Below are positions 2,098 to 57,835 of a stretch of DNA of 64,000 bases, piece by piece. Source of the stretch: a virus; the IMG/VR virus record IMGVR_UViG_3300022910_000005, positions 1 through 64,000 of that record; one strand, written 5' to 3'. Every line of letters begins with the position of its first letter. Position 1 is the stretch's first letter. The notes below the pieces were generated by a model, which did no database searches, was not told the DNA's origin, and saw only the letters and a list, made by a program, of their open reading frames with translations. Made by a program: the position numbers and the translations under genes.

Positions 2098-2101
2098 TCG
2101 T

Positions 2102-2747: not shown

Positions 2748-2807
2748 AACGCCCGGCCGGGCGGCACAAGTCGCCCGGCCGTAGCATCCAAGCCGCACGA
2801 ACCGCAG

Positions 2808-2836
2808 TTGACAACCGCTTGGCAAGCCTGTAGAGT
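2808..2836 (+). promoter_or_regulatory. promoter TTGACA-N17-TAGAGT, leaderless start at 2844
   Basis: ATG 7 nt after the -10; an RBS-preceded ATG at 2865 is an alternative start. Confidence 0.8.
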
Positions 2837-2843
2837 ACTACCC

Positions 2844-3524
2844 ATGACGACGACGGAGGCCACGATGACCGAGACAACACCGGCAGTGAAGCGCAAGGCG
2901 CTCTCCCTGGACGCCCTCCTGCCCAGCAAGGGCGAGATGACCGGCCGCATCCTCGCCACGTACAACGCGGCGAACGAGGACCAGATGCTCGATGGCAAGT
3001 CCTGGTACAGCACTGCGCATCACCTGGCCGTCCGGCTCGACCCTGAGTCACCGATCAGAGCGGCTGGTGTGATCGCGGCGCTCTCTCCACAGATGGACTG
3101 GGAGCGCAACATGTTCCTGGCCGAGCGGACCTACGCCGAGGGTCTGGCGTACGGATGCCTCGGGGTGTCCTGCCGTAAGGCGAACGAGATCTACAACGGC
3201 AACGGCTCCGAGGTTGACGTGATGCGGCTGCTGAACGCGCCGAAGACGCAGGCTTTCGCCGCGACCATCGCGAACCCGGACCATGAGGATGCCGTGGTGA
3301 TCGACCGGCACGCCGTGAGCATCGCTCTCGGTCGACCGTCCGACGACGCCGACGTGGCCACGCTCGGCCGGAAGGGTGCCTACGCCTACTACGCCGCTGC
3401 CTACCGGGCCGCCGCCGAGGTTGCCGGTGTGTCGCCGTCCACGATGCAGGCCGTGACCTGGGTGGTCTGGCGCGAGACGTCCATCCGCACGGCCGCCGCC
3501 GTCCGAGCGAAAGCCGGTCGCTGA
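2844..3524 (+). CDS. phage protein with HhH-GPD glycosylase-like motifs
   Basis: WY...AALSPQ..W..N, KTxAF, VVIDRHA, QAxTW motifs. Confidence 0.5.
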   Translation: MTTTEATMTETTPAVKRKALSLDALLPSKGEMTGRILATYNAANEDQMLDGKSWYSTAHHLAVRLDPESPIRAAGVIAALSPQMDWERNMFLAERTYAEGLAYGCLGVSCRKANEIYNGNGSEVDVMRLLNAPKTQAFAATIANPDHEDAVVIDRHAVSIALGRPSDDADVATLGRKGAYAYYAAAYRAAAEVAGVSPSTMQAVTWVVWRETSIRTAAAVRAKAGR

Positions 3525-3601
3525 CAGGTCGAAACGAGGGCCGGGAAACCGGCTTTCGTCCACGGGTGAGGCCCGTGCTGACGAGACCAGAGGAGAAGCA
3601 G

Positions 3602-3889
3602 ATGCCCGACAAGGTGACGTACGACGTGTTCCGCGACTGGATGAACCGGCCGGTCAAGCCGTACCGCAGTGAGGCGCTCTACCGGCCCGACCTGCGCAAG
3701 GCCATGATGGCCAAGATCGCCGCTCCGCTTCAGGTGATCCGCGAGCGTGGCGATGCGGAATGGACCGACGCGACCAAGATCCGTTACGAACAGGTCGACC
3801 CGGAGATGGGCATGGTCCGGTTCGTCGTCCGGCTGGCCGACGGCACCGAGCACACGGTGTCGGAGGACCGTGTCCGCGTCCGTCCCTGA
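3602..3889 (+). CDS. hypothetical protein
   Basis: GAGGAG RBS, ATG at 3602. Confidence 0.65.
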   Translation: MPDKVTYDVFRDWMNRPVKPYRSEALYRPDLRKAMMAKIAAPLQVIRERGDAEWTDATKIRYEQVDPEMGMVRFVVRLADGTEHTVSEDRVRVRP

Positions 3890-4179
3890 TGCCGCCGCAG
3901 TGGGAGGCCACGCTCACGCCGAAAGACGGGAGCGTGGTCAACGGCGACAAGCGCGAGATCGGCGTCGTGAGCGTCGTCCGGCTGGACAGCCCGGACGCCG
4001 ATCCGGTCAAGGTGGCCAGCCGTGAGGTTCGCGCGCTCACCTTGATCGGCCTGCGACGCAAGGCGGATCGAATCGCGAACGACCTGATTGACCGTGATCG
4101 GCGCAAGGTGAAGGCGGCCATCCAAGCCAAGATCGACCGCAAGCAAGCCGAACTTGACAAGCAGTTGTCAAGCCAGTAG
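3889..4179 (+). CDS. hypothetical protein with C-terminal coiled coil
   Basis: TGATG coupling to upstream gene. Confidence 0.6.
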   Translation: MPPQWEATLTPKDGSVVNGDKREIGVVSVVRLDSPDADPVKVASREVRALTLIGLRRKADRIANDLIDRDRRKVKAAIQAKIDRKQAELDKQLSSQ

Positions 4180-4182
4180 AGT
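4154..4182 (+). promoter_or_regulatory. promoter with operator palindrome TTGACAAGCAGTTGTCAA
   Basis: TTGACA-N17-TAGAGT. Confidence 0.85.
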
Positions 4183-4221
4183 ACTACCCATCAGCCCGAA
4201 CGAGCAGAGAGCGAGACCACG

Positions 4222-4446
4222 ATGAGCATCAAGATCGTCCGCAAGGTCGTCACCAAGGTCGAGCGCAAGAGCGCCACCCGCAACGGCCGCATCGTCTGGA
4301 AAGTCACCTTCGACGACAACACGGTGGCCACCACCAAGCCGAACTCACACTTCGGCCTGACCGTCACCCAGAACGAGCAGGGCCTGTACTCGGTCGAGTT
4401 CGACGACTACGGCCGGATCGTCGGCTGGGAGAAGGAGGAAGCCTGA
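4222..4446 (+). CDS. hypothetical protein (paralog of 2517..2747)
   Basis: ORF after promoter. Confidence 0.65.
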   Translation: MSIKIVRKVVTKVERKSATRNGRIVWKVTFDDNTVATTKPNSHFGLTVTQNEQGLYSVEFDDYGRIVGWEKEEA

Positions 4447-4698
4447 TGGCCGCCCGGGGCGAAGCGCAGGCGATGAAGGTGGACGGCGTGTTGATGCTGG
4501 TCTGCCAGTACTTCGGGGCCTGCACGAACGGCACCCTGAGCGCCTACGACCATCCGGTGCTCGGACCTGTGCCGACGTGCGTCCGCTGCGCTCGCAAGAT
4601 GCGCATCGCGAACGACCTGAAGCCGATCGAACTGGTGGTCGAGAACTGAACTGCCCAGCCGGGCGGCACAAGTCGCCCGGCTGTAGTATCCAACAGAG

Positions 4699-4727
4699 TT
4701 GACAAGCAAGTGACAAGCCTGTAGCGT
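4699..4727 (+). promoter_or_regulatory. promoter TTGACA-N17-TAGCGT
   Basis: family member directly after hairpin copy 6. Confidence 0.85.
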
Positions 4728-4750
4728 ACTACCAACGACGACGAAGGGAA

Positions 4751-9536: not shown

Positions 9537-9624
9537 CTGTCACAGGTGTCACAGGCAACTTATTAGTTTTCTAGCAGATTTTGCCTCGCAGGGAACGAAT
9601 CTAGAGCCTGTGACACCTGTGACA
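9537..9624. repeat. 88-bp origin-like element copy 1
   Basis: TGTCACAGGTGTCACAG / CTGTGACACCTGTGACA inverted arms around an AT-rich core; 5 mismatches to the copy at 45617. Confidence 0.9.
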
Positions 9625-11858: not shown

Positions 11859-12317
11859 TCAGCGGGTGACGATCGTTCCCTTCGTCGTGCCGGGGCCGTA
11901 GGCGTACACCGAGGCCGCGTAGGCGGCACCCTCGGGATGCACCTGCTGCGCGTAGTTGAAGATCCGCGCCGTCTCCAGGGCGACCTCCTTGTCCGACGTG
12001 ATGGTGACCGGCGGCGCGCTCAGGTTGTCGACCACGACCGCATAGTGGGTCGGCTTCTCGAACGGGATGTACCGGGTCGCTCGCATGGTCCCCACCGACC
12101 GGTCGTCGTCCAGCACCCGCTCCGCGTTCCGCTTCTGCCGTTCGGTGAGCGTGAGTCGCGGCGACGTTCCCCGCGCCTGGAACGCCTCCTGCCGGTACTC
12201 GTCTTCGAGCCTGCGGTGCCGGGCGGCTTCCTCAGGACCCCAGCGAGAACTCGGTCGCCTGGCGCAGTGCAGGAGGAAGGCGAAGTCGCCCATCGAGATG
12301 TTCATGTTGTGCGTCAT
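11859..12317 (-). CDS. hypothetical protein (leaderless)
   Basis: TTGCCA-N18-GAGAGT-N7-ATG. Confidence 0.6.
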   Translation of the reverse strand: MTHNMNISMGDFAFLLHCARRPSSRWGPEEAARHRRLEDEYRQEAFQARGTSPRLTLTERQKRNAERVLDDDRSVGTMRATRYIPFEKPTHYAVVVDNLSAPPVTITSDKEVALETARIFNYAQQVHPEGAAYAASVYAYGPGTTKGTIVTR

Positions 12318-12324
12318 GGGATGT

Positions 12325-12387
12325 ACTCTCTCACAGTTGATAGCCGCTTGGCAAGGACTTGACAACTCAGGTGATCAGGAGCACGAT
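12325..12387. promoter_or_regulatory. divergent promoter pair
   Basis: minus-strand TTGCCA/GAGAGT; plus-strand TTGACA(12359)-N17-CACGAT-N6-ATG. Confidence 0.65.
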
Positions 12388-16241: not shown

Positions 16242-16750
16242 TCCCCGTGGAGACCACCGTGGCAACGACGCCCGAAGTTCTCCAGGGGCCGTGGGAAGCG
16301 CTCGCCGAGCAGGTCGCCCGGCGGGCCCACGGCACCACCCGCAACAAGCATGACGGCACGCTCTACATCCTCCACCCGCAGTGGGTGGTCGAGTACCTGC
16401 GCCGCCGGGGATCGTCCGACATCCGCCTGGCCATCGCCTGGCTGCATGACGTGGTCGAGGACACCAGCCTGACCCTCGAAGATCTGTCCTGGATCTTCCC
16501 GATGATCATCGTTGAGGCGGTCGACGCGCTGACGCACCGGCCGGGCGAATCCCGCAAGGACTACTGCGCCCGGGTCGGGGCCGTCCTGGACGCGCTGATC
16601 GTGAAACTGGCTGACCTGCGCCACAACACGGACCGCTCCCGCCGGGAAGGACTGCCGCCCCTGGTGGTGACCCGGCTGGACCTGAAGTACACCGAAACGC
16701 ACCTGGAACTGAATCAATGGATCATCTACCACCTGGAGAACCCAGCATGA
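16238..16750 (+). CDS. HD-domain hydrolase (RelA/SpoT hydrolase-like, small alarmone hydrolase type)
   Basis: AH, YILHP, AWLHDVVEDT, VKLADLRHN motifs. Confidence 0.85.
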   Translation: MIPVETTVATTPEVLQGPWEALAEQVARRAHGTTRNKHDGTLYILHPQWVVEYLRRRGSSDIRLAIAWLHDVVEDTSLTLEDLSWIFPMIIVEAVDALTHRPGESRKDYCARVGAVLDALIVKLADLRHNTDRSRREGLPPLVVTRLDLKYTETHLELNQWIIYHLENPA

Positions 16751-17583
16751 GCAACGAGAAGCCGCACGCCGACCCGGCTGAGAACGCTGTCGGCGACAAG
16801 CCGACCGACTGGGGCACGAACGTCGGCCGACAGAGCCTGGACGATGACGTGGCCGCGCTGGCTGCCGCGTCCGGCACCCCGCAGGCGCTGCTGACGCCCG
16901 CCGCCGACCAGAAGATCGACGACGACGACGATCTGATCGTCTCGGACGCGCAGACGCTGCGCATGCTGATGGTGGAGCGGGCGGCGAAGGTGCTCGTCGA
17001 CCTGGCCGAGCGGCCGGGCTTCGGTCGCCGGGCGGCCGTCGACCTGGAGGACGTGCTGGAGTTGGCCGACTACTACATCGGGGACGAGGACTACCCGATG
17101 AAGAACGTGGTGGTGGACGAGGGCAAGCGCTTCTTCGACCAGATGACCCAGCAGGCCGACTTTCGCCCGAAGATCGCCCCCTGGCTCGACGGCGTCCTCA
17201 GCCCGTCGTCGGAGTCGTTCATTGCCGACCGGGCGGCGGCGCAGGCCGAGCAGGCGCGCCTCTACCGCGAAGGCACCGGCGGCCTCTTCCACTCGATGAT
17301 GAAGCCGGGCGCGCGCCACCCCAGGTCAACGACCGGCAAGGAGCCGACATTCGCTGAGCGGATGGACAGCCTGTTCGGCAAGCCGGTGCAGGCGAACATC
17401 CGGGTCGAGGAACTCCAGGTCGATGACCTGGTGACCAGCCACGGCGACGTGGTGATCGGCCAGCCGACCTGGGACGGCCGAGCCGAGCGCTGGGTGGTCG
17501 ACGTCTACTGCCCGAAGAAGGACGAGACCTACACCCACCGCGCGAAGGTGGACGACAGGGTCGACATCTTCAACGAGCGGTAA
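16747..17583 (+). CDS. hypothetical acidic protein
   Basis: ATGA overlap; GC3-rich codons. Confidence 0.65.
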   Translation: MSNEKPHADPAENAVGDKPTDWGTNVGRQSLDDDVAALAAASGTPQALLTPAADQKIDDDDDLIVSDAQTLRMLMVERAAKVLVDLAERPGFGRRAAVDLEDVLELADYYIGDEDYPMKNVVVDEGKRFFDQMTQQADFRPKIAPWLDGVLSPSSESFIADRAAAQAEQARLYREGTGGLFHSMMKPGARHPRSTTGKEPTFAERMDSLFGKPVQANIRVEELQVDDLVTSHGDVVIGQPTWDGRAERWVVDVYCPKKDETYTHRAKVDDRVDIFNER

Positions 17584-17600: not shown

Positions 17601-17632
17601 AGCCCGGCCAGGCAACCGCCCGGCCGGGCTTC
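17601..17632 (+). terminator. GCCCGGCC-stem terminator, identical to 56483-56514
   Basis: AGCCCGGCCAGGCAACCGCCCGGCCGGGCTTC. Confidence 0.85.
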
Positions 17633-27216: not shown

Positions 27217-29505
27217 GTGCCCGGTCTCATCGGCCCCTGGGGCTTCGAGGGTCAGTCCAGCGGGACGCAACCGTCTGTCGCGAACTCGGACGACTTCGGC
27301 GACCCGGCGTTCTCGTCGGTCTCGACCGGCGGTGGCATGTGCACGTACTCATCGGCGCAGGCCAAGTACGGCACGATGTCGCTGCGGTTCAACATCACGA
27401 CGGCGGCAACGGCGGCGATCGTCGACTCGGCGGACACCGCCTCGTCCAGCGTCGCCGCGCACTGCTGGATCTACATCGGCACATCACCCGGCGGCGAGAT
27501 CCAGGGCCCGATCGTGTTCCGGAACGCTGCCGGTGCGGTGAACGTCGCTCGCGTGCAGATGACCGCGACGAACCAGTTCCGCAACGTCTTCATCACGGGC
27601 GGCACCGGGACGGCCAGTACCGCGACCATCTCGACGGCCGGTTGGTATCGGGTCGAGGCCGTGGTGACCGGCGCGACCGGCGTCGCGTCGGCGCTGAGCA
27701 TGACGTCGAACGTGTACGACTCGTCCGGCTCCCTGGTGGTGGCCGTCCCGGCATTGACCGGCGGCACGGGCGGCAACATCGACACGATCCGCTGGGGCAA
27801 GGCAGGCGGTTCGTTCACCGTCGACTTCTGGCTCGACGACCTGCGGATGAACTTCGGGTCCGGTACCGAGATCGGCATCCCGACCCAGACGTTGACCCCG
27901 GCTGGCCTGGCGACCGTCGAATCGTGGGGCACGCAGGTGCTCACCCCCGGCTCGGTGAACGTCACCCCGGCCGGGATCATCGCGGCCGAGCAGTGGGGCA
28001 GCGCCCTGCTGACGCCCGGTTCGGTGGCCGTGGCCCCGACCGGCCTGGCGACCGGCGAGACGTTCGGCTCCGACACGGTGACGCCCGGCCAGGTGGCTGT
28101 CTCCCCGGCGGGGATCGCGTCGGCCGCCGCGTTCGGCTCCGACACGGTCGCGCCCGGTTCCGTCAGCGTCGCGCCGTCCGGCCTGGCGACTGGCGAGGCG
28201 TTCGGGTCGGCCACGGTCACCAGCAAGGCGACGATCAGCCCGGCCGGGGTCGCGTCGGCCGAGGCGTTCGGGTCGGCGACCGCTGGCATCGTCGTGGTCG
28301 CCGTCAGCCCGTCCGGGCTGGCCAGCGGTGAGGCGTTCGGCAGCAGCATGGTGGTGCCCGGCCAGGCGGCTGTCGCCCCGGCGGGGATCGCGTCGGCCGC
28401 CGCGTTCGGCAGCGCCACGGTGGCCGCTGCGGCTGCCGTCATCGCTCCGGCGGGGATTGCGAGCGGCGAGGCGTTCGGGGCCGGGAGCGTCCAGCCTGGG
28501 GCTGCTGTGGTGGCACCGAGCGGGCTCGCCTCCGGCGAATCGTGGGGCACCGCGACGATCCGCAGCAGCGTCACGCCCACCGGCCTGGCCAGCGCGGAGG
28601 CGTTCGGGTCGGCCACCATCGTCAGCGTCGTCGCGCCGGGTGGGGTGGCGACCGGCGAACAGTGGGGCGCACCGGCCATCAGCCGGGCGCTGACGGCCTC
28701 CGGCATCGCGTCGGCCGAGGTGTTCGGGACCGCGTCCGTCGTGCCGGGAGCGTCCAACGTCGCGCCGTCCGGCGTGCCTACTGGGGAGACGTGGGGCGAG
28801 CCATTCGTCGGCGCGGGCGGGGCCCGGCTCAGCCCCGTCACGATCCCCACCGGGGAGCAGTGGGGAACCGCCGCGCTCATCCCCGGCCCGGCACCGACGA
28901 TCCTCCCGCCGCCGATCGCGACCGGCGAACAGTTCGGCACGCCCCGGATCGACACCGGCCCGGCGCTGCCCGTCGGCCTGCCGTCCGCCGAAGCGTGGGG
29001 CGAGACGGCGGTCAAGCCGCAGCCGGTCGTCATCAGCGTGGCCGGGATCGCCAGCGCGGAAGCGTGGGGCCAACCGGACACGCTGCCGGGGGCCGCCGTC
29101 ATCTCCCCGGCAGGCATCCCGTGGGGGCAGGCGTGGGGAAGCCCGATCGTCGGCCCCGGCTACACCCCGATCATCCCGGCCAGCATCACTACGGGCGAGG
29201 CGTTCGGCACGCCATCCATCAGCACCCGGGCGACCATCTCGCCGTCCGGGATCGGCACCGGGGAAGCGTTCGGTCTGCCGACGCTGCACCTGCGGCTGCG
29301 CCTGGCCGGGATCGGCACCAGCGCTGCCTGGGGCTCGCCGACGATAGTCCTGGGTGTCGACCCGGACGGCCGGGACGTGGACCTGGTGGGCATCCTCGCT
29401 GACCAGGGCCGCATTGGCACTATCCTGGCTGAACAGGGCCGCGTCTCAACAGGACTCGCGACACAGGGGCGGATCACCGCCGGATTGAGGGACCAGGATG
29501 GCTGA
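27217..29505 (+). CDS. repeat-containing fibre-like protein with N-terminal beta-sandwich domain
   Basis: about 22 repeats of 20-24 aa, P(A/S)G(I/L)A(S/T)xEx(F/W)G. Confidence 0.7.
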   Translation: MPGLIGPWGFEGQSSGTQPSVANSDDFGDPAFSSVSTGGGMCTYSSAQAKYGTMSLRFNITTAATAAIVDSADTASSSVAAHCWIYIGTSPGGEIQGPIVFRNAAGAVNVARVQMTATNQFRNVFITGGTGTASTATISTAGWYRVEAVVTGATGVASALSMTSNVYDSSGSLVVAVPALTGGTGGNIDTIRWGKAGGSFTVDFWLDDLRMNFGSGTEIGIPTQTLTPAGLATVESWGTQVLTPGSVNVTPAGIIAAEQWGSALLTPGSVAVAPTGLATGETFGSDTVTPGQVAVSPAGIASAAAFGSDTVAPGSVSVAPSGLATGEAFGSATVTSKATISPAGVASAEAFGSATAGIVVVAVSPSGLASGEAFGSSMVVPGQAAVAPAGIASAAAFGSATVAAAAAVIAPAGIASGEAFGAGSVQPGAAVVAPSGLASGESWGTATIRSSVTPTGLASAEAFGSATIVSVVAPGGVATGEQWGAPAISRALTASGIASAEVFGTASVVPGASNVAPSGVPTGETWGEPFVGAGGARLSPVTIPTGEQWGTAALIPGPAPTILPPPIATGEQFGTPRIDTGPALPVGLPSAEAWGETAVKPQPVVISVAGIASAEAWGQPDTLPGAAVISPAGIPWGQAWGSPIVGPGYTPIIPASITTGEAFGTPSISTRATISPSGIGTGEAFGLPTLHLRLRLAGIGTSAAWGSPTIVLGVDPDGRDVDLVGILADQGRIGTILAEQGRVSTGLATQGRITAGLRDQDG

Positions 29506-30703: not shown

Positions 30704-31525
30704 TCATCGGATAGCCGGTTCCATCGTGATCTCGATGTTCGGCGGGAACGCCTTGTGCAGCGCGTCCAGCAGGGACGGCAGCGCCATCACGTCGGACCCG
30801 GCCAGGAGGGTCTTCGCCTCCCCGGCGTACGAGCGCAGTTCCGAGCGGACTGCCTTGCCGCGCAACGATTCACGCAGGACGTGGATGCTGCGGATGCGTG
30901 CGAGGGGGATCTGCTTGGCGGCCATCTTCTTGTCCGGGTCGAGCCGCACCACGTCGCCGTCGCAGTCGATGACGTGCGCCACGTTGGTGGACAGCGGCCG
31001 GTTCGTGGTCCGCTGGTAGGAGATCCGCACGTAGTTGCCTTCGGCCAGCGCCCACGGCCCGGCCGGGAGCGTCATGGCCTGCATCATGCTGTTCGCCTGG
31101 ACGCTGATCGGGATCTCGATCGAGATGCTGTTGCCGATGAAGTGCTGTACCTGGTAGGCGCGGGCGCGAGGTTTCGTCTCCGCGAAGGACAGCACCAGGT
31201 ACGCCAGGGACGTGTCGGCCGCCATCCGCAGGTCCGTGTCGGACAGGATCGGCTCGCTGGTTGGGTGGCTGTGAAACATCGCCACCGGCTCCTCGGCGGC
31301 CAGGTCGAAGTCGGCGTACGCCAGCCGGACTTCCTCCGGGTGCATCTTGAACGTGGTGATCGGCTTCTCGGACACGTTGCGCATCCAGTGCACGCGCACG
31401 CCGAGGCTGGAGCCCTTCTCGGCGACGATGAAGCCGCACGACTCCTGGGGTCGCTGGAGCCTGCACATCCGGATCATGTTCTGCATGGTGCTGGCCGTCA
31501 TGGTCAGCGAGCCGGGAACGCTCAC
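30704..31525 (-). CDS. JAB/MPN+ metalloprotease with C-terminal extension
   Basis: PQESCG and FHSHPTSEPILSDTD (intact JAMM motif). Confidence 0.85.
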   Translation of the reverse strand: MSVPGSLTMTASTMQNMIRMCRLQRPQESCGFIVAEKGSSLGVRVHWMRNVSEKPITTFKMHPEEVRLAYADFDLAAEEPVAMFHSHPTSEPILSDTDLRMAADTSLAYLVLSFAETKPRARAYQVQHFIGNSISIEIPISVQANSMMQAMTLPAGPWALAEGNYVRISYQRTTNRPLSTNVAHVIDCDGDVVRLDPDKKMAAKQIPLARIRSIHVLRESLRGKAVRSELRSYAGEAKTLLAGSDVMALPSLLDALHKAFPPNIEITMEPAIR

Positions 31526-35833: not shown

Positions 35834-35855
35834 AGTTGACAAGCGGTTGTCAACT
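35834..35855. promoter_or_regulatory. operator palindrome with perfect 9-bp arms / minus-strand promoter
   Basis: AGTTGACAA-GCGG-TTGTCAACT. Confidence 0.85.
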
Positions 35856-45616: not shown

Positions 45617-45705
45617 CTGTCACAGGTGTCACAGCCAACTTATTGATTTTCTAGAGGATTTTGCCTCGCAGGGAACGAATCTAGAGCCTGTGACACCTGT
45701 GACAG
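45617..45705. repeat. 88-bp origin-like element copy 2, directly upstream of the primase-helicase
   Basis: same orientation as 9537-9624. Confidence 0.9.
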
Positions 45706-48731: not shown

Positions 48732-48743
48732 CTGAACGCAGCC

Positions 48744-48811
48744 GCCCGCCACCTCGTAGTAAGAGGTGGCGGGCTTCTGCGTTGACAAGCGGTTGTCAAG
48801 TCTGTTACCTT
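48744..48811 (+). promoter_or_regulatory. terminator followed by the operator-promoter of the transfer operon
   Basis: GCCCGCCACCTC...GAGGTGGCGGGC then TTGACAAGCGGTTGTCAA at 48782. Confidence 0.8.
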
Positions 48812-48843
48812 GATAGCAAGTTAGCAACCACGGGAGGAACCCC

Positions 48844-49137
48844 ATGAACCACCTGCACACGCTGGCCGTGCTCGCGGCTGCCCCCAACATCAGCGTCGAC
48901 AAGATCAAGCAGTCGGCGCTGATGATTCTCACCGCCCTGATCTGCATCGGCCTCGCCTACATGACCCTCAAGGTCATCTGGAAGGACACCGACGACGGCG
49001 ACTACAGCAGCGTCGCGAAGAAGGTGCTCACCTCGATCATCGGGATGATCCCCTTCGTCATGGCCGGATCGCTGGCCATCGCCGCCGGGTGGGCGACCGC
49101 GCTGCTGAGCCTGCTGACCGGGCTGGTCTCGAAGTGA
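48844..49137 (+). CDS. pilin-like (VirB2/TrbC-like) 2-TM protein
   Basis: 97 aa, two long hydrophobic helices, first gene before virB3/virB4-like genes; GGAGG RBS. Confidence 0.55.
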   Translation: MNHLHTLAVLAAAPNISVDKIKQSALMILTALICIGLAYMTLKVIWKDTDDGDYSSVAKKVLTSIIGMIPFVMAGSLAIAAGWATALLSLLTGLVSK

Positions 49138-49946
49138 GCCCCGTGCAGCGGAACGACGACGACGGACGCCAGATCCGGCAGCCGTGGCTGGGCGCGAAAG
49201 GCGCACGCTGGCCGATGGACTGGACCTACGACGAGTGGGCGCTCGGCCTGTTCGGGTTCATCGTCGGCGGGACGCTGATCACCTGGGTGGTCCCGGCTGC
49301 CGTCATGGCGTTCATCGTGATCCGTTCCGCTGCACGGTTCATCTCGATCCGCAACAACCCGCACGCGCCCCGCAAGACGTACCTGCTCGTCGTGGCGATG
49401 ATGACGACGCTCTGCCTGATCCTGTCCGTCAACCCGATGTTCTGGCTCAAGCCGATCTTCCTGCCGTTCGCGCTGGTCGCGTCGCTGTTCATGCCCTCGC
49501 GCACCGTGAAGGCGTACGGCAAGTACGTCGGCTGGAACCGGCCGCTGTCCTACTGGATCGCCATGCCGTTCCGGATCGCCCGGGGGCCGCGCCTGGTGCC
49601 CACCGACACGATCAACCCGGCGATGCTCGGCATGGGCCTCGACCTGGAGAGCCTCGACCGCGATGACACGGCCGACCTGGTGCCCGGCCGGATCGTCACG
49701 ATCCCCCGGCTGAAGGCCCCGGCCAGGAAACCTGCGCCGCAGGCGCTTGCCCCCAAGCCCGTCAAGGCGACCATCACCAGCGCACCGAAGAAGACCGCCC
49801 GCGTCGCCCGCACCCCGCTGACCGAGCGCCGCCTCGTCGCACCGGGCGCTCCGGTCCGCCACCGCACCCGCAAGCAGAACCTGATCTACCGCACGCCGAC
49901 CGGCCTGATGGTCTTCGGCACCGAGTACCGGATGGAGAGCCGCTGA
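49134..49946 (+). CDS. VirB3/TcpE/PrgI-like membrane protein
   Basis: TM helices; immediately upstream of VirB4-like gene. Confidence 0.5.
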   Translation: MSPVQRNDDDGRQIRQPWLGAKGARWPMDWTYDEWALGLFGFIVGGTLITWVVPAAVMAFIVIRSAARFISIRNNPHAPRKTYLLVVAMMTTLCLILSVNPMFWLKPIFLPFALVASLFMPSRTVKAYGKYVGWNRPLSYWIAMPFRIARGPRLVPTDTINPAMLGMGLDLESLDRDDTADLVPGRIVTIPRLKAPARKPAPQALAPKPVKATITSAPKKTARVARTPLTERRLVAPGAPVRHRTRKQNLIYRTPTGLMVFGTEYRMESR

Positions 49947-52633
49947 TGGGCCTGTTCGCCGCCCCCAAGAAGACGACCTGGACGACACCGGTCCGCAAGA
50001 CGATCGCTCTCGCGCCGACGGCCAAGCAGGTGGTGCGCAACCTGATCCTGCTGAAGGACGGCAGCGTGCTGGCCGGTTACCGGATCGGCGACGCACGCTG
50101 GGACTTCACCGGCAAGGACGCGAAGATCATGCGGATGGACCAGGACGCGGACGTGTTCGCCGCGCTGGTCGGCCGGTCCTACCACGAGCGGGTCACCACC
50201 CGCCCGCACCCGGTCGCGACCTGGGCCGGGAACCTCGACAAGCGGACGCCACGCCCGACGCCCGACATCCACACCTGCGACCTGAGCGCGGGCCTTTCCC
50301 AGGGCGACCTGCTGAACGGCCGGTGCGGCTGCGAGACGTGGGGCCGTCACCTGATCCGCCAGCAGGACGTCATCGCCCGTTCCGGCATGAACGACAAGAT
50401 CGTCTTCCGCTACTTCGGCCTGACCGTGAAGGTGTCGCCGCGCACCGACCTTCGCAAGCAGATCAACGAGTTCGTGAAGACCGGCAAGGCGTCCGGCGTC
50501 GTGGCTCGGCTGATCGCCGACGAGAAGCGCGTCAGCGACATCGTGACCGGCTGGCCGGGCTCCAAGCGGATGAGCGAGTACGAGCAGGGCTGGCTGCGGG
50601 TCCGCTCGCTGTCGCCCGGCGTCATCCCCACCGGCATCCACAGCAAGGACCGGGGCGGCTGGGACGAACTGGCCCTGCCTGCCCTCGCGTCCGACACCCG
50701 GTGGGCCGAGACGCCTTTCGGCCGGACCGTGACCGTCACCTCGTTCGCCGACGGCAAGCAGGTCGAGTCGGCCGTGCGCGTGCTGACGATGGCGCGGATG
50801 GCCGACCTGAACTACCCGGAGAACGGGATGCCGCCGTGGCAGGTGCACGGCGAGTCCGTCCTGGACGCTTCCGGCCGCCCGTTCCCGGTGGAGTGGTCGG
50901 TCGTCGGCCGTCTGCGCTCCGGCGAGGAACTGGCCAAGGAGGTGGAATTCGAACTGCGGCGCGTCCAGCACGTCAAGGGCGACTACGAGGATCACAGCGA
51001 ACTGCCGCCGTCGAACGTCGGCAAGGCCATCGCCGTCGCCGTCGACACCCGCGACCAGGTCACCACCGGCCAGGCTGCTGTCGCCGCCAGGTTCCAGGGA
51101 CAGATCAACGTGATCATCTCCGGCCAGGCGACCGAGAACCTCACCGCCGAGCAGGTGGTCGAGGAGCGGTGCGCCGCGTTCACCCGGATGTACGCCAACG
51201 CTGGCCTGCGGATGGACTTCACCGGCTCCGACAGCCAGTCGTTCATGCTGGCCAGCACGGTGCCCGGTGAGCCGTACGACCGGCTCGGCTTCCAGCGTCG
51301 CCTGCGGCTGCCGTTCCTGACGGCCGGGATGCCGAACGTCTCCTCGTCCGTCGGTGACGGCGTCGGCCCGTACCTGGGCCACACCCGGGGAGCGACCCGG
51401 CGCGCGGTGCAGCACGACCCGCACTTCGCCACGGAAGGTCTGCGGACCGGCCGGGGCCAGAACATGCACGTCGTGCTCGGCACGCTCGGTGCCGGGAAGT
51501 CCGTCGTGACCGGCTCCATCGGCTACAACGCCGTCCGCCGGGGCATCCGCACGGTCATCTCCGACCCGTCCGGCCCGCTCGCGGCGCTGACGAAAATGCC
51601 GGAGATCGCGGACGTTTCGCAGGAGATCAACCTGCTGAACGGCGCGCGGGGCATCCTGTCCCCGGCCGCACTGATCCGCGACCCGCTGCTGACCGAGTAC
51701 GACGAGCCCGGCCAGTTCGCGGAGGCCCTGGGCCAGGCGGCGGCCGAGCGGCGGGACCTGATGGTCGACATGGCCAAGCGCTGCCTGCCGGACTACCTGA
51801 TGAAGGACCAGGCCGAAGCCCGCACGGAGGCGGCCCTGCGCCTGGCCGCTCGCCAGCACGCCGAGACGCGGGACGGCTGGAAGCAGACCGACACCATGTG
51901 GGACCTGATGCGTCCGCTGAAGGACAGCACCGACGACTGGGCGAAGGCCGTCCACGGTGCGCTGACGGACGCCTCCACCGCTCCGCTGCTGCGCCTCATG
52001 TTCCCGGAGCCGGGCGCTCCCGGCAGCATCGGGCACTACGACAAGACGCTCACGGTGATCACTACCCCTGGCATCGTGCGGGCCGTGGACGGCACGCCGC
52101 GCAAGGACTGGAACCCGCTGGAGGTCGGGGCCGACGTGGTGCTGCGCCTGGTCGGACTGTTCACCGACCGGCTGATCTACTCGAAGACCCGCAGCGAACG
52201 CTGCATCGCGATCTTCGACGAGGCCGAGTCGCTGACGGACTTCGGGCCGGGCCGGTCCATGCTGTCCCGGCTGGGCCGCGACCACTCCAAGTGGAACATC
52301 GCCGTCTACCTGGCCGTGAAAAGCATCAACCCGCAGATGCTTTCGGGGGAGTTGAAGAACTTCCTCGCCAGCGTGTTCGTCGGCCGGATGGCATCGCGCG
52401 AACCGGCCGAGGCCGCGCTGGAACTGCTGGGGCTGACCGACAAGCGGTACGCGCAGGTGCTCATGGGCCTGTCCACGTACGTGCCCGGCGAGTTCGTCCA
52501 CGCCGACGTGGCCGGGAACGTGGGGATGCTGAAGGTCGACGTGGACTACCACCCGGCCCTGAAGGACGCACTGCTGACCGACCCGACTCCGGAAGGCTCC
52601 GGCCACTGGACCCTTGAAGAGGAGATCGCCTGA
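49946..52633 (+). CDS. VirB4-like conjugative ATPase
   Basis: 895 aa; C-terminal GTLGAGKS, ISDPSG, IFDEAE, R.GR motifs; GPYLG upstream of the P-loop. Confidence 0.82.
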   Translation: MGLFAAPKKTTWTTPVRKTIALAPTAKQVVRNLILLKDGSVLAGYRIGDARWDFTGKDAKIMRMDQDADVFAALVGRSYHERVTTRPHPVATWAGNLDKRTPRPTPDIHTCDLSAGLSQGDLLNGRCGCETWGRHLIRQQDVIARSGMNDKIVFRYFGLTVKVSPRTDLRKQINEFVKTGKASGVVARLIADEKRVSDIVTGWPGSKRMSEYEQGWLRVRSLSPGVIPTGIHSKDRGGWDELALPALASDTRWAETPFGRTVTVTSFADGKQVESAVRVLTMARMADLNYPENGMPPWQVHGESVLDASGRPFPVEWSVVGRLRSGEELAKEVEFELRRVQHVKGDYEDHSELPPSNVGKAIAVAVDTRDQVTTGQAAVAARFQGQINVIISGQATENLTAEQVVEERCAAFTRMYANAGLRMDFTGSDSQSFMLASTVPGEPYDRLGFQRRLRLPFLTAGMPNVSSSVGDGVGPYLGHTRGATRRAVQHDPHFATEGLRTGRGQNMHVVLGTLGAGKSVVTGSIGYNAVRRGIRTVISDPSGPLAALTKMPEIADVSQEINLLNGARGILSPAALIRDPLLTEYDEPGQFAEALGQAAAERRDLMVDMAKRCLPDYLMKDQAEARTEAALRLAARQHAETRDGWKQTDTMWDLMRPLKDSTDDWAKAVHGALTDASTAPLLRLMFPEPGAPGSIGHYDKTLTVITTPGIVRAVDGTPRKDWNPLEVGADVVLRLVGLFTDRLIYSKTRSERCIAIFDEAESLTDFGPGRSMLSRLGRDHSKWNIAVYLAVKSINPQMLSGELKNFLASVFVGRMASREPAEAALELLGLTDKRYAQVLMGLSTYVPGEFVHADVAGNVGMLKVDVDYHPALKDALLTDPTPEGSGHWTLEEEIA

Positions 52634-54429
52634 TGTTGAAGGGTTTTCACCGCTACGTGCGGCTGGCCCAGTTATCGGTGGTGCTGATGCTGGTGGCGTT
52701 CGCACTGATCATCCACGCCGCCTCGGCCCACGCTTCCGCCCCGGCCGGGATCGACGTGCCGGGCGTGGAGGTATGCCCGAAGGAGGCACCGTTCGCGCAG
52801 ACGCCGGAGTCCGGGCTGGCCGGGCTTCTCGGTGAGCGTCCGCTGAAGATCACCACCGACAACTCCCCCGATCACATCTGGACGACGGGCGGCTTCGCTG
52901 GCCTCCAGTCGAACACCTACGACCTCGGCTGTGGCATGAACCCCGGCAACTGGGTGAAAATCACCAGCGCGCACACCGGTTCGTCGATGAGCAACTTCTT
53001 CCTGTCGGCCGGGGACTCGATGGTGTCGCTGACGGACTCGATCGACCGGCGGGCGTGGCAGCCGCAGTGGCTGCTGTCGTTCCTGGACGACTTCATGTTC
53101 CGGGTGACGGGGATGACGAACACGCTCATCCTGCTGCCGTTCCTGGGCCTGGCGCTGGCGCTGGTCGGAGTGATCCTCGTCTGGAAGTCCAACGATGGTG
53201 ACTATGCCGCTGCCGCAACGAGTGTCGGCTGGATCTTCATCGTCCTTGCCATCACGTCGCTGCTGGTGACGACGCCGCTGATCGTCGCGAAGTTCGGCAC
53301 GAGCGTCGGCTCCACGTCGGTCGCGGTGCTGAACGGCGGCGCGAACGCCTCCGACGCCGTCACCAACCAGGTGGTCAAGAACGTCGAGTACCAGGGCTGG
53401 CTGCGTCGCAACTTCGGCCCGTCGGACACGGAGGTCGGCAAGAAGTACGGGCCGGAACTGCTGGCGGCCAGCCGGGTTTCGTGGGCGGAACTGGACAAGG
53501 TCAACGCCCTGCCCGCCGACAAGCAGTCGCAGGCGCGTTCCGATCTGACGGACGCGAAGGCGAAGAAGTTCAAGGACATCGCCGCGAAGGTGAAGGACGA
53601 AGACCCGACGGCCTACAAGTACCTGACCGGTGAGATCATCGGCACCCAGGAGAGCATCGTCGAGGTGATCTTCCTGTTCATGGCGTGCGCGCTGCGGATG
53701 ATGGTGGCGATCCTGATGATCGCCTGCGTGATCAGCCTGGCCCTGATCAGCATCCTGTGGGTGCTGCTGACGCCGGTCCTCATCCAGCCGCCGTTCAAGA
53801 TGCTGGACGGGCGCACACTCGGCACCGGCCTGCTGAACGGTTCGATGCGCGCCCTGCTGTACGTCGGCGAAGCGGCGCTCGGCGCATGGCTTTACGGCTT
53901 CTTCCTCCAGGCGTGCATGGCCCCGGGCCTGAACCTCTGGTGGTCGCTGCTGCTGCTGACGATCGGCACGCTGATCGCCTGGTTCATGATCGGCCCGTTC
54001 GGCAAGTTGATGGCGATCCTGTCGCTGGGCCGGGCCGACACCGGAGCCTCCTACGTCGGCAAGGCCGTGAAGGGCGCGCTGATGGCCTGGGGCGGCGGCC
54101 TGATCGCCGGGCTGGCGGCGGCGAAGTCGGTCAACGATCACGAGGACGAGGAGCGGGCGGCGGCCCCAGAGCGGCTGTCTGAGACGATCCAGCAGCCGCA
54201 GGTCGTGCACGCCACCGTCTACAACCCGTGGGAGCACCAGATGGACGACACGGTGCGCACCGAGCACTTCCCCGACGCAGACCGGACGCTGCCGACCGGC
54301 GGCACCCCGGAACTGCCGATGTACCGGCGCGGTGCCGAACCGGCCCCGCCGCCGGACGAGACCGCCAGCCCGTACGCCACGTACGAGCGGGAAAGTTCTT
54401 CTGATGACAACGAGGGAGCGCACCTGTGA
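52633..54429 (+). CDS. VirB6/TcpH-like polytopic membrane protein
   Basis: signal-like N-terminus, multiple TM segments, low-complexity C-terminal tail; follows VirB4. Confidence 0.7.
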   Translation: MLKGFHRYVRLAQLSVVLMLVAFALIIHAASAHASAPAGIDVPGVEVCPKEAPFAQTPESGLAGLLGERPLKITTDNSPDHIWTTGGFAGLQSNTYDLGCGMNPGNWVKITSAHTGSSMSNFFLSAGDSMVSLTDSIDRRAWQPQWLLSFLDDFMFRVTGMTNTLILLPFLGLALALVGVILVWKSNDGDYAAAATSVGWIFIVLAITSLLVTTPLIVAKFGTSVGSTSVAVLNGGANASDAVTNQVVKNVEYQGWLRRNFGPSDTEVGKKYGPELLAASRVSWAELDKVNALPADKQSQARSDLTDAKAKKFKDIAAKVKDEDPTAYKYLTGEIIGTQESIVEVIFLFMACALRMMVAILMIACVISLALISILWVLLTPVLIQPPFKMLDGRTLGTGLLNGSMRALLYVGEAALGAWLYGFFLQACMAPGLNLWWSLLLLTIGTLIAWFMIGPFGKLMAILSLGRADTGASYVGKAVKGALMAWGGGLIAGLAAAKSVNDHEDEERAAAPERLSETIQQPQVVHATVYNPWEHQMDDTVRTEHFPDADRTLPTGGTPELPMYRRGAEPAPPPDETASPYATYERESSSDDNEGAHL

Positions 54430-54923
54430 TCACCTGGATGTTCCAGAGCCCCGACCGGCTGAAGCGGGTGGCGATCACCTTCGCGCTGACCTGCGTGACG
54501 CTGACGATCCTGCTGACGATCGTCCGGGTCCACGACCTGGCTTCCCACCGGCCGACCGCCGAGCCGACCTACGGGGCCACCACGGAATCGACCGCTACCG
54601 GCCTGCTGCCGCCGTCTCCCAGCCCCGAACCGGCTCCGGCGACCACGGAGTACGGACCGGCCACGCCGATCGCCCTGGAGGCCGCTCAGGCGTTCCTCCA
54701 GGGGGACCGGAGCCGGTTCGCTGAACTGGCCCAGCCGGACGTCGTCGAGTCCGCCAACGAAGCGCCCACGCCCGGCGGGCAGATCACCGCGCCCGGCCGC
54801 GTCCTGCTCGGCGGGCCGACCCAGCAGAAGATCCTGGTGCCGACCAGCGAAGGCGACCTGACCCTCACCATGATCGTCATCGACGGGGCCTGGAAGGTCG
54901 CCGGGATGGAGTACGCGAAGTGA
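54426..54923 (+). CDS. VirB8/TcpC-like bitopic protein
   Basis: single TM, Pro/Thr linker, AAQAF...W.V NTF2-like pattern. Confidence 0.5.
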   Translation: MITWMFQSPDRLKRVAITFALTCVTLTILLTIVRVHDLASHRPTAEPTYGATTESTATGLLPPSPSPEPAPATTEYGPATPIALEAAQAFLQGDRSRFAELAQPDVVESANEAPTPGGQITAPGRVLLGGPTQQKILVPTSEGDLTLTMIVIDGAWKVAGMEYAK

Positions 54924-55244
54924 GCCGGTCGCAGCGGAGGATAGAACTGGACCTGAAGTACGGAATTGTCACCATGATGATCGTCGAGGCGGCCTGCTTC
55001 GCCGTTCCGTTCTGGCTGCTGGTTGCGCTCGTCCGGTGGTGGGCGGCGTGAGCAACTGGGTGCCGCCGCACATTCCGATCCGGGACCATCCCGGGCCGCC
55101 CCGCTGCTGGATGTGCAACCGGCGGCTGCGCTGGTGGCAGATGACCACCTGCCGGACCTGCTCGCCGCACTTCCACGACTTCATGTGGCTGCACAACCAC
55201 ATGGGCCGCAACACGTTCGCCCCACCCGACCGATGGAGGAACCG

Positions 55245-56228
55245 ATGAAGATCTGGATCGCTGCGGGCGCAGCCAGCCTGGCCGGGCTCGTCGCGGTTCC
55301 GCTCGCCATCACCAGTCTGATGTTCGGCCCACCGCCGCTGCCCGCGCTCAGCATCGCCACCCAAGAGGTCTCCTCCTGCACGGTGCAGATCCCGGCCAGC
55401 GCGCGCACGGCCGGAGCACTGTCGGCCGAGCAGGTCGCGAAATATGCGTACGCGGCCGGTTTCCGTGGGCAGGACATCAACATCGCCGTGGCCGTGGCCC
55501 GCGCCGAGTCCGGCTGGCGGCCGACCGCAACCCTGCTGAACACCAACGGCAGCACCGACCACGGCCTGTTCCAGATCAACTCGATCCACGCGGCGATCCT
55601 CGCGGAAGGGAACTGGGCTGACCCGGCCGACAACGCGAAGATGGCGTTCAAGGTCTGGACGCAGGCGGGCGGCAAATGGTCCCCGTGGGTGACGTACTGG
55701 CGCGGCACCTACAAGCAGTACCTGACGGACGTCGACCCGAAACCCACCTGCACCACACCGAAGTCGACCGGCCCGTGCAAGAAGGTGAGCGGTGAGTTCT
55801 CCAACGGGCTCATCCCGGCCAGCGCGCTCTGCACCCTGTGGACCAACCGCCACCACCGCCTGCGGGCCGACGCCGCCAACTCGTTCGACGCGATGAGCCG
55901 GGCGTACATGGCGAAATTCGGTGTGCGGCTGTGCCTTACGGACTCCTACCGGCCGCTGTCCGTGCAGATCGACCTGAAGCGGCGGAAGGGTTTCCTAGCC
56001 GCGAAGCCCGGCACGTCCAACCACGGCTGGGGTCTGGCTGTCGATCTGTGCGCTCGCGGCAGCCAGGAGAACCCGCAGCCGTGGAACCGTGGCACCGAGG
56101 ACGACGTGTGGCTGCACCAGAACGCACCGAAGTTCGGCTGGGTCCACCCCGGCTGGGCTGAGCCGTCCGGCTCGAAACCCGAACCCTGGCACTGGGGTTA
56201 CAACCTCGACAAGGAGCACGCACCGTGA
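55245..56228 (+). CDS. membrane-anchored lytic transglycosylase + M15B D,D-peptidase (VirB1/TcpG-like)
   Basis: AESG...GLFQIN; SYR...PGTSNHGWGLAVD...EPWHW. Confidence 0.88.
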   Translation: MKIWIAAGAASLAGLVAVPLAITSLMFGPPPLPALSIATQEVSSCTVQIPASARTAGALSAEQVAKYAYAAGFRGQDINIAVAVARAESGWRPTATLLNTNGSTDHGLFQINSIHAAILAEGNWADPADNAKMAFKVWTQAGGKWSPWVTYWRGTYKQYLTDVDPKPTCTTPKSTGPCKKVSGEFSNGLIPASALCTLWTNRHHRLRADAANSFDAMSRAYMAKFGVRLCLTDSYRPLSVQIDLKRRKGFLAAKPGTSNHGWGLAVDLCARGSQENPQPWNRGTEDDVWLHQNAPKFGWVHPGWAEPSGSKPEPWHWGYNLDKEHAP

Positions 56229-56473
56229 GCGATCCGCTTGACCTTCTGGGTGTTGCCGCCATGCGAAAACTACGGGCCCAGCAGGAACTTGCCGCAGCGA
56301 ACGCCTCCCTGGCAGCCGCCCTGCGACTCATGGCAGCCCGGCCTGGCGAACCGAAGTGCAGGGTCGGGCAGCACGCACGGGCCTACCTCGGCCTGCATGG
56401 ATTCGGACCAGAAGAGATGACGGCGCTCGGTATTTCGGACAGCAGTGTCAGGAACATGCTCGACGCGGGGTAG
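56225..56473 (+). CDS. small hypothetical protein (possible HTH)
   Basis: GTGA overlap; LGISDSSVRNML. Confidence 0.45.
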   Translation: MSDPLDLLGVAAMRKLRAQQELAAANASLAAALRLMAARPGEPKCRVGQHARAYLGLHGFGPEEMTALGISDSSVRNMLDAG

Positions 56474-56482
56474 GCAGCGAAA

Positions 56483-56514
56483 AGCCCGGCCAGGCAACCG
56501 CCCGGCCGGGCTTC
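56483..56514. terminator. terminator between the transfer operon and the lysis genes
   Basis: identical to 17601-17632. Confidence 0.85.
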
Positions 56515-56543
56515 GTCGTGTTCGCGACCTGCCAGACGAAGGA

Positions 56544-56786
56544 TCAGACGTCAGACAGCGTGCTGGCCGAGTCCGGGTTGCCGACCTGCTTGGCCACGAA
56601 CACCTTGACGGAGTTCAGACCGGCCAGGATGATCGGGGCCGACCAGATCGGCAGATCGAGGGAGTCGATCGACAGCAGGACGGACGTCACGACACCGTAG
56701 GACGTGGTCCAGAAGATCCGCTCCAGGGCGTCCTTCATGAACTTCGGCTGACGGTACCGGGGGACGGCCGGGGTTTCGTTGGTCAC
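56544..56786 (-). CDS. holin
   Basis: 80 aa, KDALERIFWT, two hydrophobic segments, downstream of endolysin. Confidence 0.75.
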   Translation of the reverse strand: MTNETPAVPRYRQPKFMKDALERIFWTTSYGVVTSVLLSIDSLDLPIWSAPIILAGLNSVKVFVAKQVGNPDSASTLSDV

Positions 56787-56803
56787 TGGTTTTCTCCTGA
56801 GGG

Positions 56804-57835
56804 TCAGACCGAGCGGGATTCGCCGGTCGGGTTGGACGGGATCAGCGTACTCGCCAGGTCGTTGACCTTGCCTTCGATCGTGGCCAGGGAGAGCGCCGTC
56901 GCCTCGCGGGCGGCCTTCTCCTCGTCCAGCGCGGCGGTCAGCGTCACCAGCAGGTTGTAGACCCGCTCGGCGGCCGGGCCGCCCCACTTCGCGAGCCGGT
57001 CGTAGGTCAGTTCGTCGCCCAACTTCCACGGCGTGGCGCTGGGGCCGTTGTTGCTGTTCATCTGGTCGACCATGTACTGGCTGGTCAACTTGACGGACAG
57101 GTCGTCCTTGGTGAGTGCGGCCACGCTGGGCTCCTTCGGTGGGTCCGGCTTCTCGACCGGAGGCTTGGGCTTCGGGGGGTTGAGCGCGCTCACGACGCGC
57201 GGGATGACGATCGCCTTCAACTGGGCGATCCGGGCGGGACCGGGGCAGCCCTTGCCGACCGCGCCAGACCACTGCACGCCGCCCTTCACCAGCCAGCCGG
57301 AGCCGGACGGCTTGAAGCCGGTCGAATGCTTGCAGCCCTGCCGGTGGTAGGCGATCCCCCGGCGGCCGGGCTTCGTGTCCGGCACCAGCCTGGCCGGGAT
57401 TCCGACCTTGTGGCACTCGAAGTGGCTCGGGCAGTCCTTGTGGGCTTCCTTCGAGCAGAGCCAGGTCACCAGCCGGACGATCGCGTCGATCTGCTCGGGC
57501 GTCCATCCGGCGATGTCCTCGACGAGACGCGGTGCGTTGTCAGCGGTTTCGATGGAGATGACCCCCATGTTTCCGTTGAGGTTCGCGTCGGCCTTGTACG
57601 CCGTGTCGCCCCATTGGTAGACGACGCCGTTGAGGTCGGCGGCCTTGTCGCCGCCCCACTTGCCGCCGACACCGAAATGCGATTCGGTGCCGGACCAGCC
57701 GTTCTGGTGGAACATCGCGTCGGTCGACGTGAGGAAGCCGACCATTGTGTGCAGGCAGATGAAATCGTGCGACGTCATCGCCGCCTGGTGACCGGCGGCG
57801 AGCGGTCGCCACCGGGCTCGGGAGTACCTAGCCAT
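56804..57835 (-). CDS. endolysin, N-acetylmuramoyl-L-alanine amidase
   Basis: LHT, SHF, ISIET, YH, CPG motifs; Pro-rich linker. Confidence 0.88.
   Translation of the reverse strand: MARYSRARWRPLAAGHQAAMTSHDFICLHTMVGFLTSTDAMFHQNGWSGTESHFGVGGKWGGDKAADLNGVVYQWGDTAYKADANLNGNMGVISIETADNAPRLVEDIAGWTPEQIDAIVRLVTWLCSKEAHKDCPSHFECHKVGIPARLVPDTKPGRRGIAYHRQGCKHSTGFKPSGSGWLVKGGVQWSGAVGKGCPGPARIAQLKAIVIPRVVSALNPPKPKPPVEKPDPPKEPSVAALTKDDLSVKLTSQYMVDQMNSNNGPSATPWKLGDELTYDRLAKWGGPAAERVYNLLVTLTAALDEEKAAREATALSLATIEGKVNDLASTLIPSNPTGESRSV

Follow-up and report, generated by a model that had tools for sequence, protein, structure and literature searches.

What genes resembling a conjugation channel are doing in a phage genome, and whether they belong to it or have only just arrived, is the question raised by the stretch from 48.74 to 56.51 kb of virus record IMGVR_UViG_3300022910_000005, a seven-gene operon with the features of a type IV secretion system (T4SS) cassette. 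As routes for DNA between cells, virions and conjugation channels are commonly seen as alternatives, and our literature searches on phage-borne VirB4 or T4SS turned up no tailed phage described as carrying a type IV secretion channel. The window analyzed here comprises the first 64 kb of the 80,684-bp IMG/VR record, which CheckV rates as complete. We consider it probable that the stretch forms a transcription unit complete in itself and has been resident in the phage lineage for a long time. An earlier note on this DNA had proposed that the operon is wired with phage-native regulatory parts and is domesticated, not a recent insertion of an integrative and conjugative element (ICE). The first proposal holds, as the promoter motif and the terminator both belong to multi-copy families spread over the non-late regions of the phage and do not occur above chance elsewhere. 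The second is well supported by the restriction of the cassette to one clade, by congruent trees, by shared position and promoter, by composition and by the lack of integrase and att repeats; that the cassette is inverted in this phage had been overlooked.

The seven genes are tightly packed, with overlaps of 1-4 nt (Table 1), and would encode the channel half of a monoderm T4SS. The VirB4-like ATPase has intact Walker A (GAGKS) and Walker B (FDEAE) motifs, the residues of which are invariant in 24 homologs; it matches TcpF weakly (49.9 bits vs an NCBIfam cut-off of 1100) and has no match among PDB sequences. The putative VirB6/TrbL-like membrane protein, for which no Pfam match was found, falls with TrbL/VirB6 clusters of Actinomycetota in the protein atlas (score 0.95, TM 0.72), and its only high-probability PDB matches in Foldseek (0.96) are to R388 TrwI/VirB6, with a weak E of 0.17 and from a model with a pLDDT of 61. 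The candidate VirB8-like protein yields an AF2 model with pLDDT >90 in the NTF2-like domain, and its Foldseek matches are generic NTF2-fold proteins with one IcmL-like T4SS protein among them (best E 3.5e-3); nothing at E <= 0.001 was returned for either model. The peptidoglycan hydrolase (PF18896 (SLT_3), 4.3e-19; PF02557 (VanY), 4.6e-14; PF01464 (SLT), 2.1e-6), the true start of which is probably the ATG at 55233, is putatively assigned a VirB1/CwlT-like role. The remaining products are small: the 97-aa protein, with no family match, is a putative T4SS-type membrane component equivalent in position to VirB2/VirB3-like proteins; the ~270-aa gene begins with a GTG that overlaps the previous stop and has an alternative start at 49089; and the 82-aa protein, in which neither a family match nor a DNA-binding domain was detected, has a C-terminus that looks helix-turn-helix (HTH)-like by eye, making it a possible cassette regulator.

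The distribution of the cassette bears directly on how long it has been in the phage. Eight IMG/VR contigs carry it, with VirB4 identities of 42-69%, and VirB4 also occurs in 35 metagenome proteins (0/35 from NCBI); the closest relative, P0001, is 88% identical. A pattern-limited VirB4 profile scan of 185,579 bacterial species genomes returned no relative, and there was likewise no match when the operon was compared by megablast with phage and plasmid collections or VirB4 by tblastn with phages. All cassette-bearing phages form a single clade in the tail-protein tree (support 96/100), and the records of five relatives outside this clade, one of them 96% complete, contain no VirB4 at all. The VirB4 tree is largely congruent with the tail tree, placing this phage with L010, L012 and L013 and pairing L011 with L016, with the plasmid homologue on a very long branch. 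In the seven relatives with the tail side visible, the cassette adjoins the same tail and lysis genes without exception, and a tetranucleotide comparison, as the earlier note had suggested, gives r = 0.95 for cassette versus rest, inside the 0.92-0.98 of equal-sized windows. Monophyletic presence, a congruent VirB4 tree and ordinary tetranucleotides together point to one old gain of the cassette followed by vertical descent.

The genome around the cassette is likewise that of a phage. The right third of the record, on the minus strand, encodes the large terminase, portal, head protease, major head protein, tape measure, tail proteins and endolysin; numerous small rightward genes fill the left 27 kb, and leftward replication and recombination genes (primase-polymerase/D5 helicase, endonuclease VII, exonucleases) occupy 30-46 kb. 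Six-frame searches with hidden Markov models over the whole 80.7-kb record found no tyrosine integrase (PF00589), no serine recombinase (PF00239), no ParA and no ParB, and this, together with the virion gene set, makes the record look like a siphovirus without detected lysogeny genes; its host appears to be a high-GC Gram-positive bacterium. The absence of an integrase noticed earlier thus extends to the full record, and the absence of flanking direct repeats stands as well, since the repeats between 46 and 58 kb belong only to low-identity families (most 65-79%) of the chance type seen in GC-rich DNA. An integrase, att-like repeats, foreign composition or patchy distribution would each mark an insertion, and none of the four was seen. 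Near-identical DNA is present in leaf-litter, rhizosphere and soil metagenomes.

A clear departure from the relatives is the orientation of the cassette, which is inverted only in this phage and co-directional with the tail and lysis genes in every relative with the tail visible. The neighbor genes at 46.7-48.7 kb and the primase keep their orientation and the cassette alone is flipped, so that its terminator now faces the converging lysis operon. A hairpin lies at each end of the flipped segment, and recombination between palindromic terminators may have caused the inversion. The convergent 3' junction is real and shared by a close strain, as a rhizosphere contig from an independent study bridges 55998-56536 to 56792-57118 with three differences. 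A terminator precedes the cassette here and in L010, L012 and L013, even behind co-directional lysis genes.

Transcription of the cassette would start from a host sigma-A/sigma-70-type promoter (TTGACA, 18-bp spacer, TACCTT), the -35 of which is embedded in what appears to be the general promoter motif of the phage. The 18-mer TTGACAAGCGGTTGTCAA at this promoter recurs exactly in the replication region, as had been observed; described then as a palindrome, it is self-complementary at 16 of its 18 positions and so is not a perfect one. At up to 3 mismatches it gives 26 strand-matches at 16 positions in the window and none in 100 shuffles. A genome-wide motif scan, among the checks proposed earlier, places the 18-mer in a promoter-associated family of ~20 sites, TTGACA-N6-TG(T/A)CAA, all of which lie within 0-49 kb in the early, replication and accessory regions; the late virion/lysis region (49-80.7 kb) has no site except 3-mismatch chance matches inside genes. 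Because eight sites fall within one mismatch of the 18-mer, the two exact copies are merely consensus-perfect members of the family. Transcription from them runs leftward at 35853 and rightward at 48782, so that, relative to their transcripts, they are reverse complements of each other.

The family has further regularities. By the scan, 13 sites have a TANNNT -10 at 17-18 bp and several others a GAGANT-type hexamer there; several lie 7-8 nt ahead of an ATG, which suggests leaderless transcripts; and eight left-arm promoters have in common TAG(C/A)GT and, after it, ACTACCCA or a near variant. The motif can alternatively be read as a TTGACA-like hexamer followed by a second, TTGWCA-like one 11 bp later (start to start, one helical turn), with three phased hexamers at some sites (17639/17650, 42972/42983, 12337/12348), and its asymmetric core occurs in both orientations relative to transcription. 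The last of these triplets lies in a divergent promoter region (12337-12365) between the leftward gene 11859-12365 and rightward genes from 12630; it could be a switch region; in the genes on either side, no DNA-binding domain was detected. Repeated sites are familiar from actinobacteriophages: mycobacteriophage L5 has its repressor-binding 'stoperators' and phiC31 its conserved inverted repeats. The present motif resembles these in being one short sequence repeated ~20 times over the non-late genome, overlapping -35 hexamers in both orientations, and differs from them in that it consists of two or three TTGACA-like hexamers phased at 11 bp and is found only at promoters, in a phage without detected repressor, integrase or temperate signs. 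Motifs of the same type are multi-copy in the relatives G001 (14 forward, 17 reverse), G002 (21, 17) and G003 (3, 4), and sparse or absent in cassette-less relatives.

The layout of the cassette promoter is itself conserved in five phages (this one, L010, L011, L012 and L013), with 32 invariant alignment columns that include the T-A-N3-T of the -10. In L010, L012 and L013 a holin-like gene is followed by a GCCCGGCC-type hairpin, CTGCG or TTGCG, TTGTCA-N6-TGTCA(A/T), a -10 of TATGNT, a TAAC/TAGC word pair 8 nt apart, the ribosome-binding site and the first gene; L011 keeps the layout with a -35 of TTGACA, and no such hairpin is visible upstream of it. The operator core of L013, AGCGGT, is identical to that of this phage. 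The element behind the -10, which may be an extra control site, reads TAGC/TAGC here and in L011, TAAC/TAAC in L012 and L013, and TAAC/TAGC in L010. The hairpin abutting the promoter on its upstream side has 24-nt arms that are 88% complementary (RNA fold -40.3 kcal/mol, z -8.1).

At the other end, the terminator matches the early-region hairpin at 32/32 positions, exactly as the earlier note had stated, a match that in self-BLAST reaches 41 nt at 95%. Both belong to a GCCCGGCC...GGCCGGGC hairpin family with members at 7779, 17602, 20702 and 56484; a second family is found at 1146, 2454, 2754 and 4656. On the minus strand the cassette hairpin folds at -36.6 kcal/mol and is followed by UUUU, which fits the definition of an intrinsic terminator as a stable GC-rich stem-loop plus U-tract; the terminator consensus scan, limited to loops of up to 8, does not list it because its loop is longer. 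It probably terminates transcription in both directions, ending that of the cassette and facing the converging lysis operon. The 3' terminator flank of L013 resembles 56474-56514, with the CAGCGAAAAGCCC flank common to 56474-56486. In the left arm (289-4744), short genes are separated by near-identical terminator-promoter blocks of 40-90 nt with 89-98% identity by self-BLAST (for example 2099-2174 vs 2450-2525 and 2444-2503 vs 2744-2804), which suggests that these regulatory cassettes have been repeatedly duplicated or gene-converted. Recent copying or gene conversion of this kind is the likely source of the hairpin identity, and since the 18-mers are consensus-perfect and the hairpins probably copied, a special link between the loci concerned follows from neither identity.

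The earlier note had accepted that its reading would fail if the operator and terminator were common in host chromosomes or unrelated ICEs, and as far as this can be tested they are not. The 18-mer was compared with bacterial genomes, IMG/VR, plasmids and phages, and the 32-mer with IMG/VR and plasmids. In 596 Gb of bacterial genomes, four variants of the 18-mer turned up at 38 single loci, in scattered taxa and none labelled Actinomycetota, against a chance expectation of ~35 by our calculation; in IMG/VR the exact 18-mer is found in 13 unrelated contigs (GC 37-64%), with one site per contig, and the 32-mer has 0 matches. Plasmids gave only chance-level partial matches to the control parts, phage records no match to the promoter region, and a literature search on the motif half-sites turned up only unrelated primers.

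Among known systems, the cassette is most readily compared with the minimised conjugative T4SSs of Gram-positive bacteria, such as the ICEBs1 Con proteins, pCW3 Tcp, pIP501 Tra and Tn916. As in these, VirB4, a candidate VirB6-like protein, a candidate VirB8-like NTF2 protein, a wall hydrolase and small membrane proteins are combined in one operon; unlike them, the phage has no VirD4-type coupling protein and no match to the PF03432 relaxase. Six-frame searches of the whole record returned no VirD4/TraG-type coupling-protein domain (TraG-D_C, PF12696) and no PF03432 relaxase, with other relaxase families and oriT not searched. The best plasmid matches of the ATPase are on Streptomyces plasmids (27-29% over 95-97% of its length), followed by Rhodococcus and Prescottella plasmids. 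On the Streptomyces linear plasmid NZ_CP029542, the ATPase finds a homologue at 29.5% identity (E 2e-88), the VirB6-like protein the product of a neighboring 784-aa gene at 26.7% (E 5e-31), and the HNH-FtsK fusion an FtsK/SpoIIIE protein at 28.8% (E 2e-31). The gene order is the same: two small genes are followed by those for a ~900-aa ATPase, a large membrane protein, a protein of ~170 aa and finally a cell-wall hydrolase.

There are also differences. The phage proteins are very divergent from those of the plasmid (long branch); the phage hydrolase combines SLT and VanY where the Streptomyces plasmid has NlpC/P60; and the FtsK/SpoIIIE gene and parA lie next to the cluster on NZ_CP029542, whereas in the phage the FtsK-type protein forms a fusion with an HNH nuclease and is encoded 26 kb from the cassette, and no partition or integration genes were detected. 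The fusion is present in the relatives G001, G002, G004 and G005, with one TAA stop in the G004 match. The comparison was made on NZ_CP029542, and SLP2 is drawn on as described in PMC2782261, where six genes transcribed together, SLP2.19-23 / pQC542.1c-6c, are reported as required for conjugal transfer. The chromosomal homologue of that plasmid cassette in Streptomyces coelicolor, cmdABCDEF (SCO4126-4131), acts in sporulation and antibiotic production, and its deletion leaves transfer of an SLP2-derived plasmid unchanged (PMC2782261); likened to the phage genes by description, it indicates that such cassettes can take a non-transfer role.

One rival reading is that an ICE or plasmid fragment inserted only recently, or that the assembly is a chimera formed via the repeated hairpin; it would agree with the actinobacterial plasmids that harbor the nearest named relatives of the ATPase, VirB6-like and FtsK-type proteins and with the assembly-graph contigs that break at the 32-mer repeat. 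It is already contradicted, and scarcely credible, given plasmid protein identities of just 27-30%, the long plasmid branch, eight independent viral contigs with the cassette (seven with the same tail and lysis neighbors), its monophyletic presence and ordinary composition, the lack of integrase and att repeats, and an independent sample's contig across the 3' junction; long clade-wide retention also all but rules out contamination, misassembly and fresh insertion. How the cassette is controlled is less certain. Since the motif stands at ~20 non-late promoters and at no late one, RNA polymerase itself or a dedicated factor probably groups the cassette with the non-late genes, and co-regulation with other phage genes can reasonably be inferred. 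It is somewhat unlikely that the motif is merely a strong host-type promoter spread by terminator-promoter duplication and transcribed constitutively by the host polymerase with no dedicated regulator. The canonical -35 of the first hexamer, the TANNNT -10 of most sites, the duplicated left-arm blocks and the lack of a motif-binding protein in protein family searches all agree with such a spread, which would not by itself explain why the second hexamer and the 11-bp phasing are kept across phages with proteins ~50% identical, or why some sites have three phased hexamers; the use of both core orientations fits a symmetric binder better than copy-paste. We also think it unlikely that the cassette is controlled mainly on its own, via the TARC-N4-TARC element and perhaps the 82-aa product, with only a generic -35 shared. 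This element is found at the same place in five phages, the terminator ahead of the cassette recurs in three relatives and the 82-aa gene is conserved at the operon end; against it, the 82-aa protein lacks a detected DNA-binding domain and the element could be a 5' untranslated region or a transcription start region, and such control is in any case compatible with a phage-wide motif rather than exclusive of it. Co-regulation stays a hypothesis, and several observations weigh against it. The cassette -10 lacks the TAG(C/A)GT+ACTACCCA signature of the eight left-arm promoters, and this different -10, with the cassette-specific element behind it, makes separate control possible; G004 and G005 carry the cassette yet lack the motif, which is therefore not required for cassette retention, with each phage seemingly supplying the cassette with a promoter in its own style. 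Searches of ~60 proteins against Pfam, PHROGs and NCBIfam, with many small proteins left unscanned, found no repressor, HTH protein or sigma factor; no RNA run holding the 48744-56514 stretch was found; and on the plus strand the terminator folds at -27.7 to -31.5 kcal/mol with a weak U-tract tail (UUCGUCGUGUU). The VirB6-like and VirB8-like assignments, too, rest on fold-level or language-model similarity with weak statistics.

Together with the conserved HNH-FtsK pump, the channel would most likely build an envelope-spanning conduit during infection. A strong competitor, if somewhat short of an even chance, is that the cassette moves no DNA and serves another envelope function such as protein export, wall remodelling or phage and plasmid exclusion: neither a PF03432 relaxase nor a VirD4-type coupling protein was found in the record, and cmdABCDEF affects sporulation and antibiotics without altering SLP2-derived plasmid transfer (PMC2782261). 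For DNA movement speak the syntenic plasmid clusters beside FtsK/SpoIIIE genes, the homologous FtsK-type pump that the phage keeps, and the reported requirement of the six-gene SLP2 cassette for conjugal transfer (PMC2782261). The boldest form of the conduit reading, in which the phage, using its non-late promoter class to express a channel of plasmid origin, passes its own DNA through the channel and HNH-FtsK into neighboring cells or hyphal compartments and so spreads both as particles and by contact, is in our judgment doubtful.

Whichever function applies, the channel half of a plasmid mating system appears to have been long kept by a clade of soil phages, equipped with a phage-style promoter and terminator, and to travel as a discrete unit even where, as in this phage, it is inverted. 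Were the cassette to move DNA or proteins from cell to cell, ideas on how phages spread through soil aggregates or mycelia would have to be revised; if it moves neither, it would be a clear case of a mating machine co-opted for a viral purpose. Its compact design (a single promoter, dyad and terminator for an operon of seven genes) offers handles for experiment.

Table 1. Coordinates of the cassette, its control parts and related features in the window.
Feature	Position	Strand	Remarks
Long hairpin	48735..48783	+	end of the operon upstream (46.78-48.73 kb); directly adjoins the cassette promoter
18-mer TTGACAAGCGGTTGTCAA	48782..48799	+	-35 hexamer 48782-48787 plus inverted TGTCAA half 6 bp downstream; consensus-perfect
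Predicted -10 TACCTT	48806..48811	+	18 bp after the -35
Cassette-specific conserved element	48812..48829	+	two TAGCA words 8 nt apart, between -10 and ribosome-binding site
97-aa protein	48844..49137	+	up to three hydrophobic segments (two overlap); conserved in L010, L012, L013
~270-aa protein	49134..49946	+	three hydrophobic segments; homologs in all eight related loci
VirB4-like ATPase, 895 aa	49946..52633	+	PF12846 AAA_10, E 7.6e-19
VirB6/TrbL-like membrane protein, 598 aa	52633..54429	+	seven hydrophobic segments (two overlap) by hydropathy
VirB8-like bitopic protein, 165 aa	54426..54923	+	N-terminal membrane helix, linker, C-terminal NTF2-like domain
Membrane-anchored bifunctional peptidoglycan hydrolase	55023..56228	+	lytic transglycosylase and VanY/M15 peptidase domains
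82-aa protein	56225..56473	+	last operon gene; conserved in L010, L012, L013
GC-rich hairpin	56483..56514		convergent junction between operon stop 56473 and leftward lysis-region gene stop 56544
Twin hairpin terminator	17601..17632	+	after gene 16717-17583, directly before motif promoter 17639/17650; fold -37.9 kcal/mol
HNH nuclease-FtsK/SpoIIIE ATPase fusion, 555 aa	21469..23136	+	PF01580, PF01844; outside the operon
Twin 18-mer	35836..35853	-	-35/dyad of leftward promoter, -10 TACTGT; genes 35782-33442 incl. exonuclease
Motif sites, left	293, 649, 1569, 2808, 4154, 4699, 6666, 9440, 12337-12365, 14017, 15409, 17639/17650		
Motif sites, remainder	20736, 24393, 33286, 35853, 42989/43000, 46748/46765, 48782		

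Some further observations concern the surroundings of the cassette and the rest of the window. In the close rhizosphere strain, 255 nt of the holin-like gene region (56536-56792) are replaced by 360 other letters between flanks that are >99% identical. Short-sided joints (<=30 letters where given) linking ~46.5 kb to ~56.9 kb were set aside as likely cross-matches from other organisms. Two 88-bp elements at 9537-9624 and 45617-45704 are 94% identical in direct orientation, each with inverted arms of TGTCAC units around an AT-rich core; one of them lies just upstream of the primase-helicase gene, and assembly-graph contigs break there. The most GC-rich stretch (73.6%) holds a 762-aa open reading frame (27217-29505) with internal tandem repeats at 27.9-28.8 kb and no family match. 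Among the replication-side genes, 30704-31525 encodes a JAB/JAMM-domain protein (Prok-JAB, E 6.8e-14) beside a YdjM-like membrane protein.

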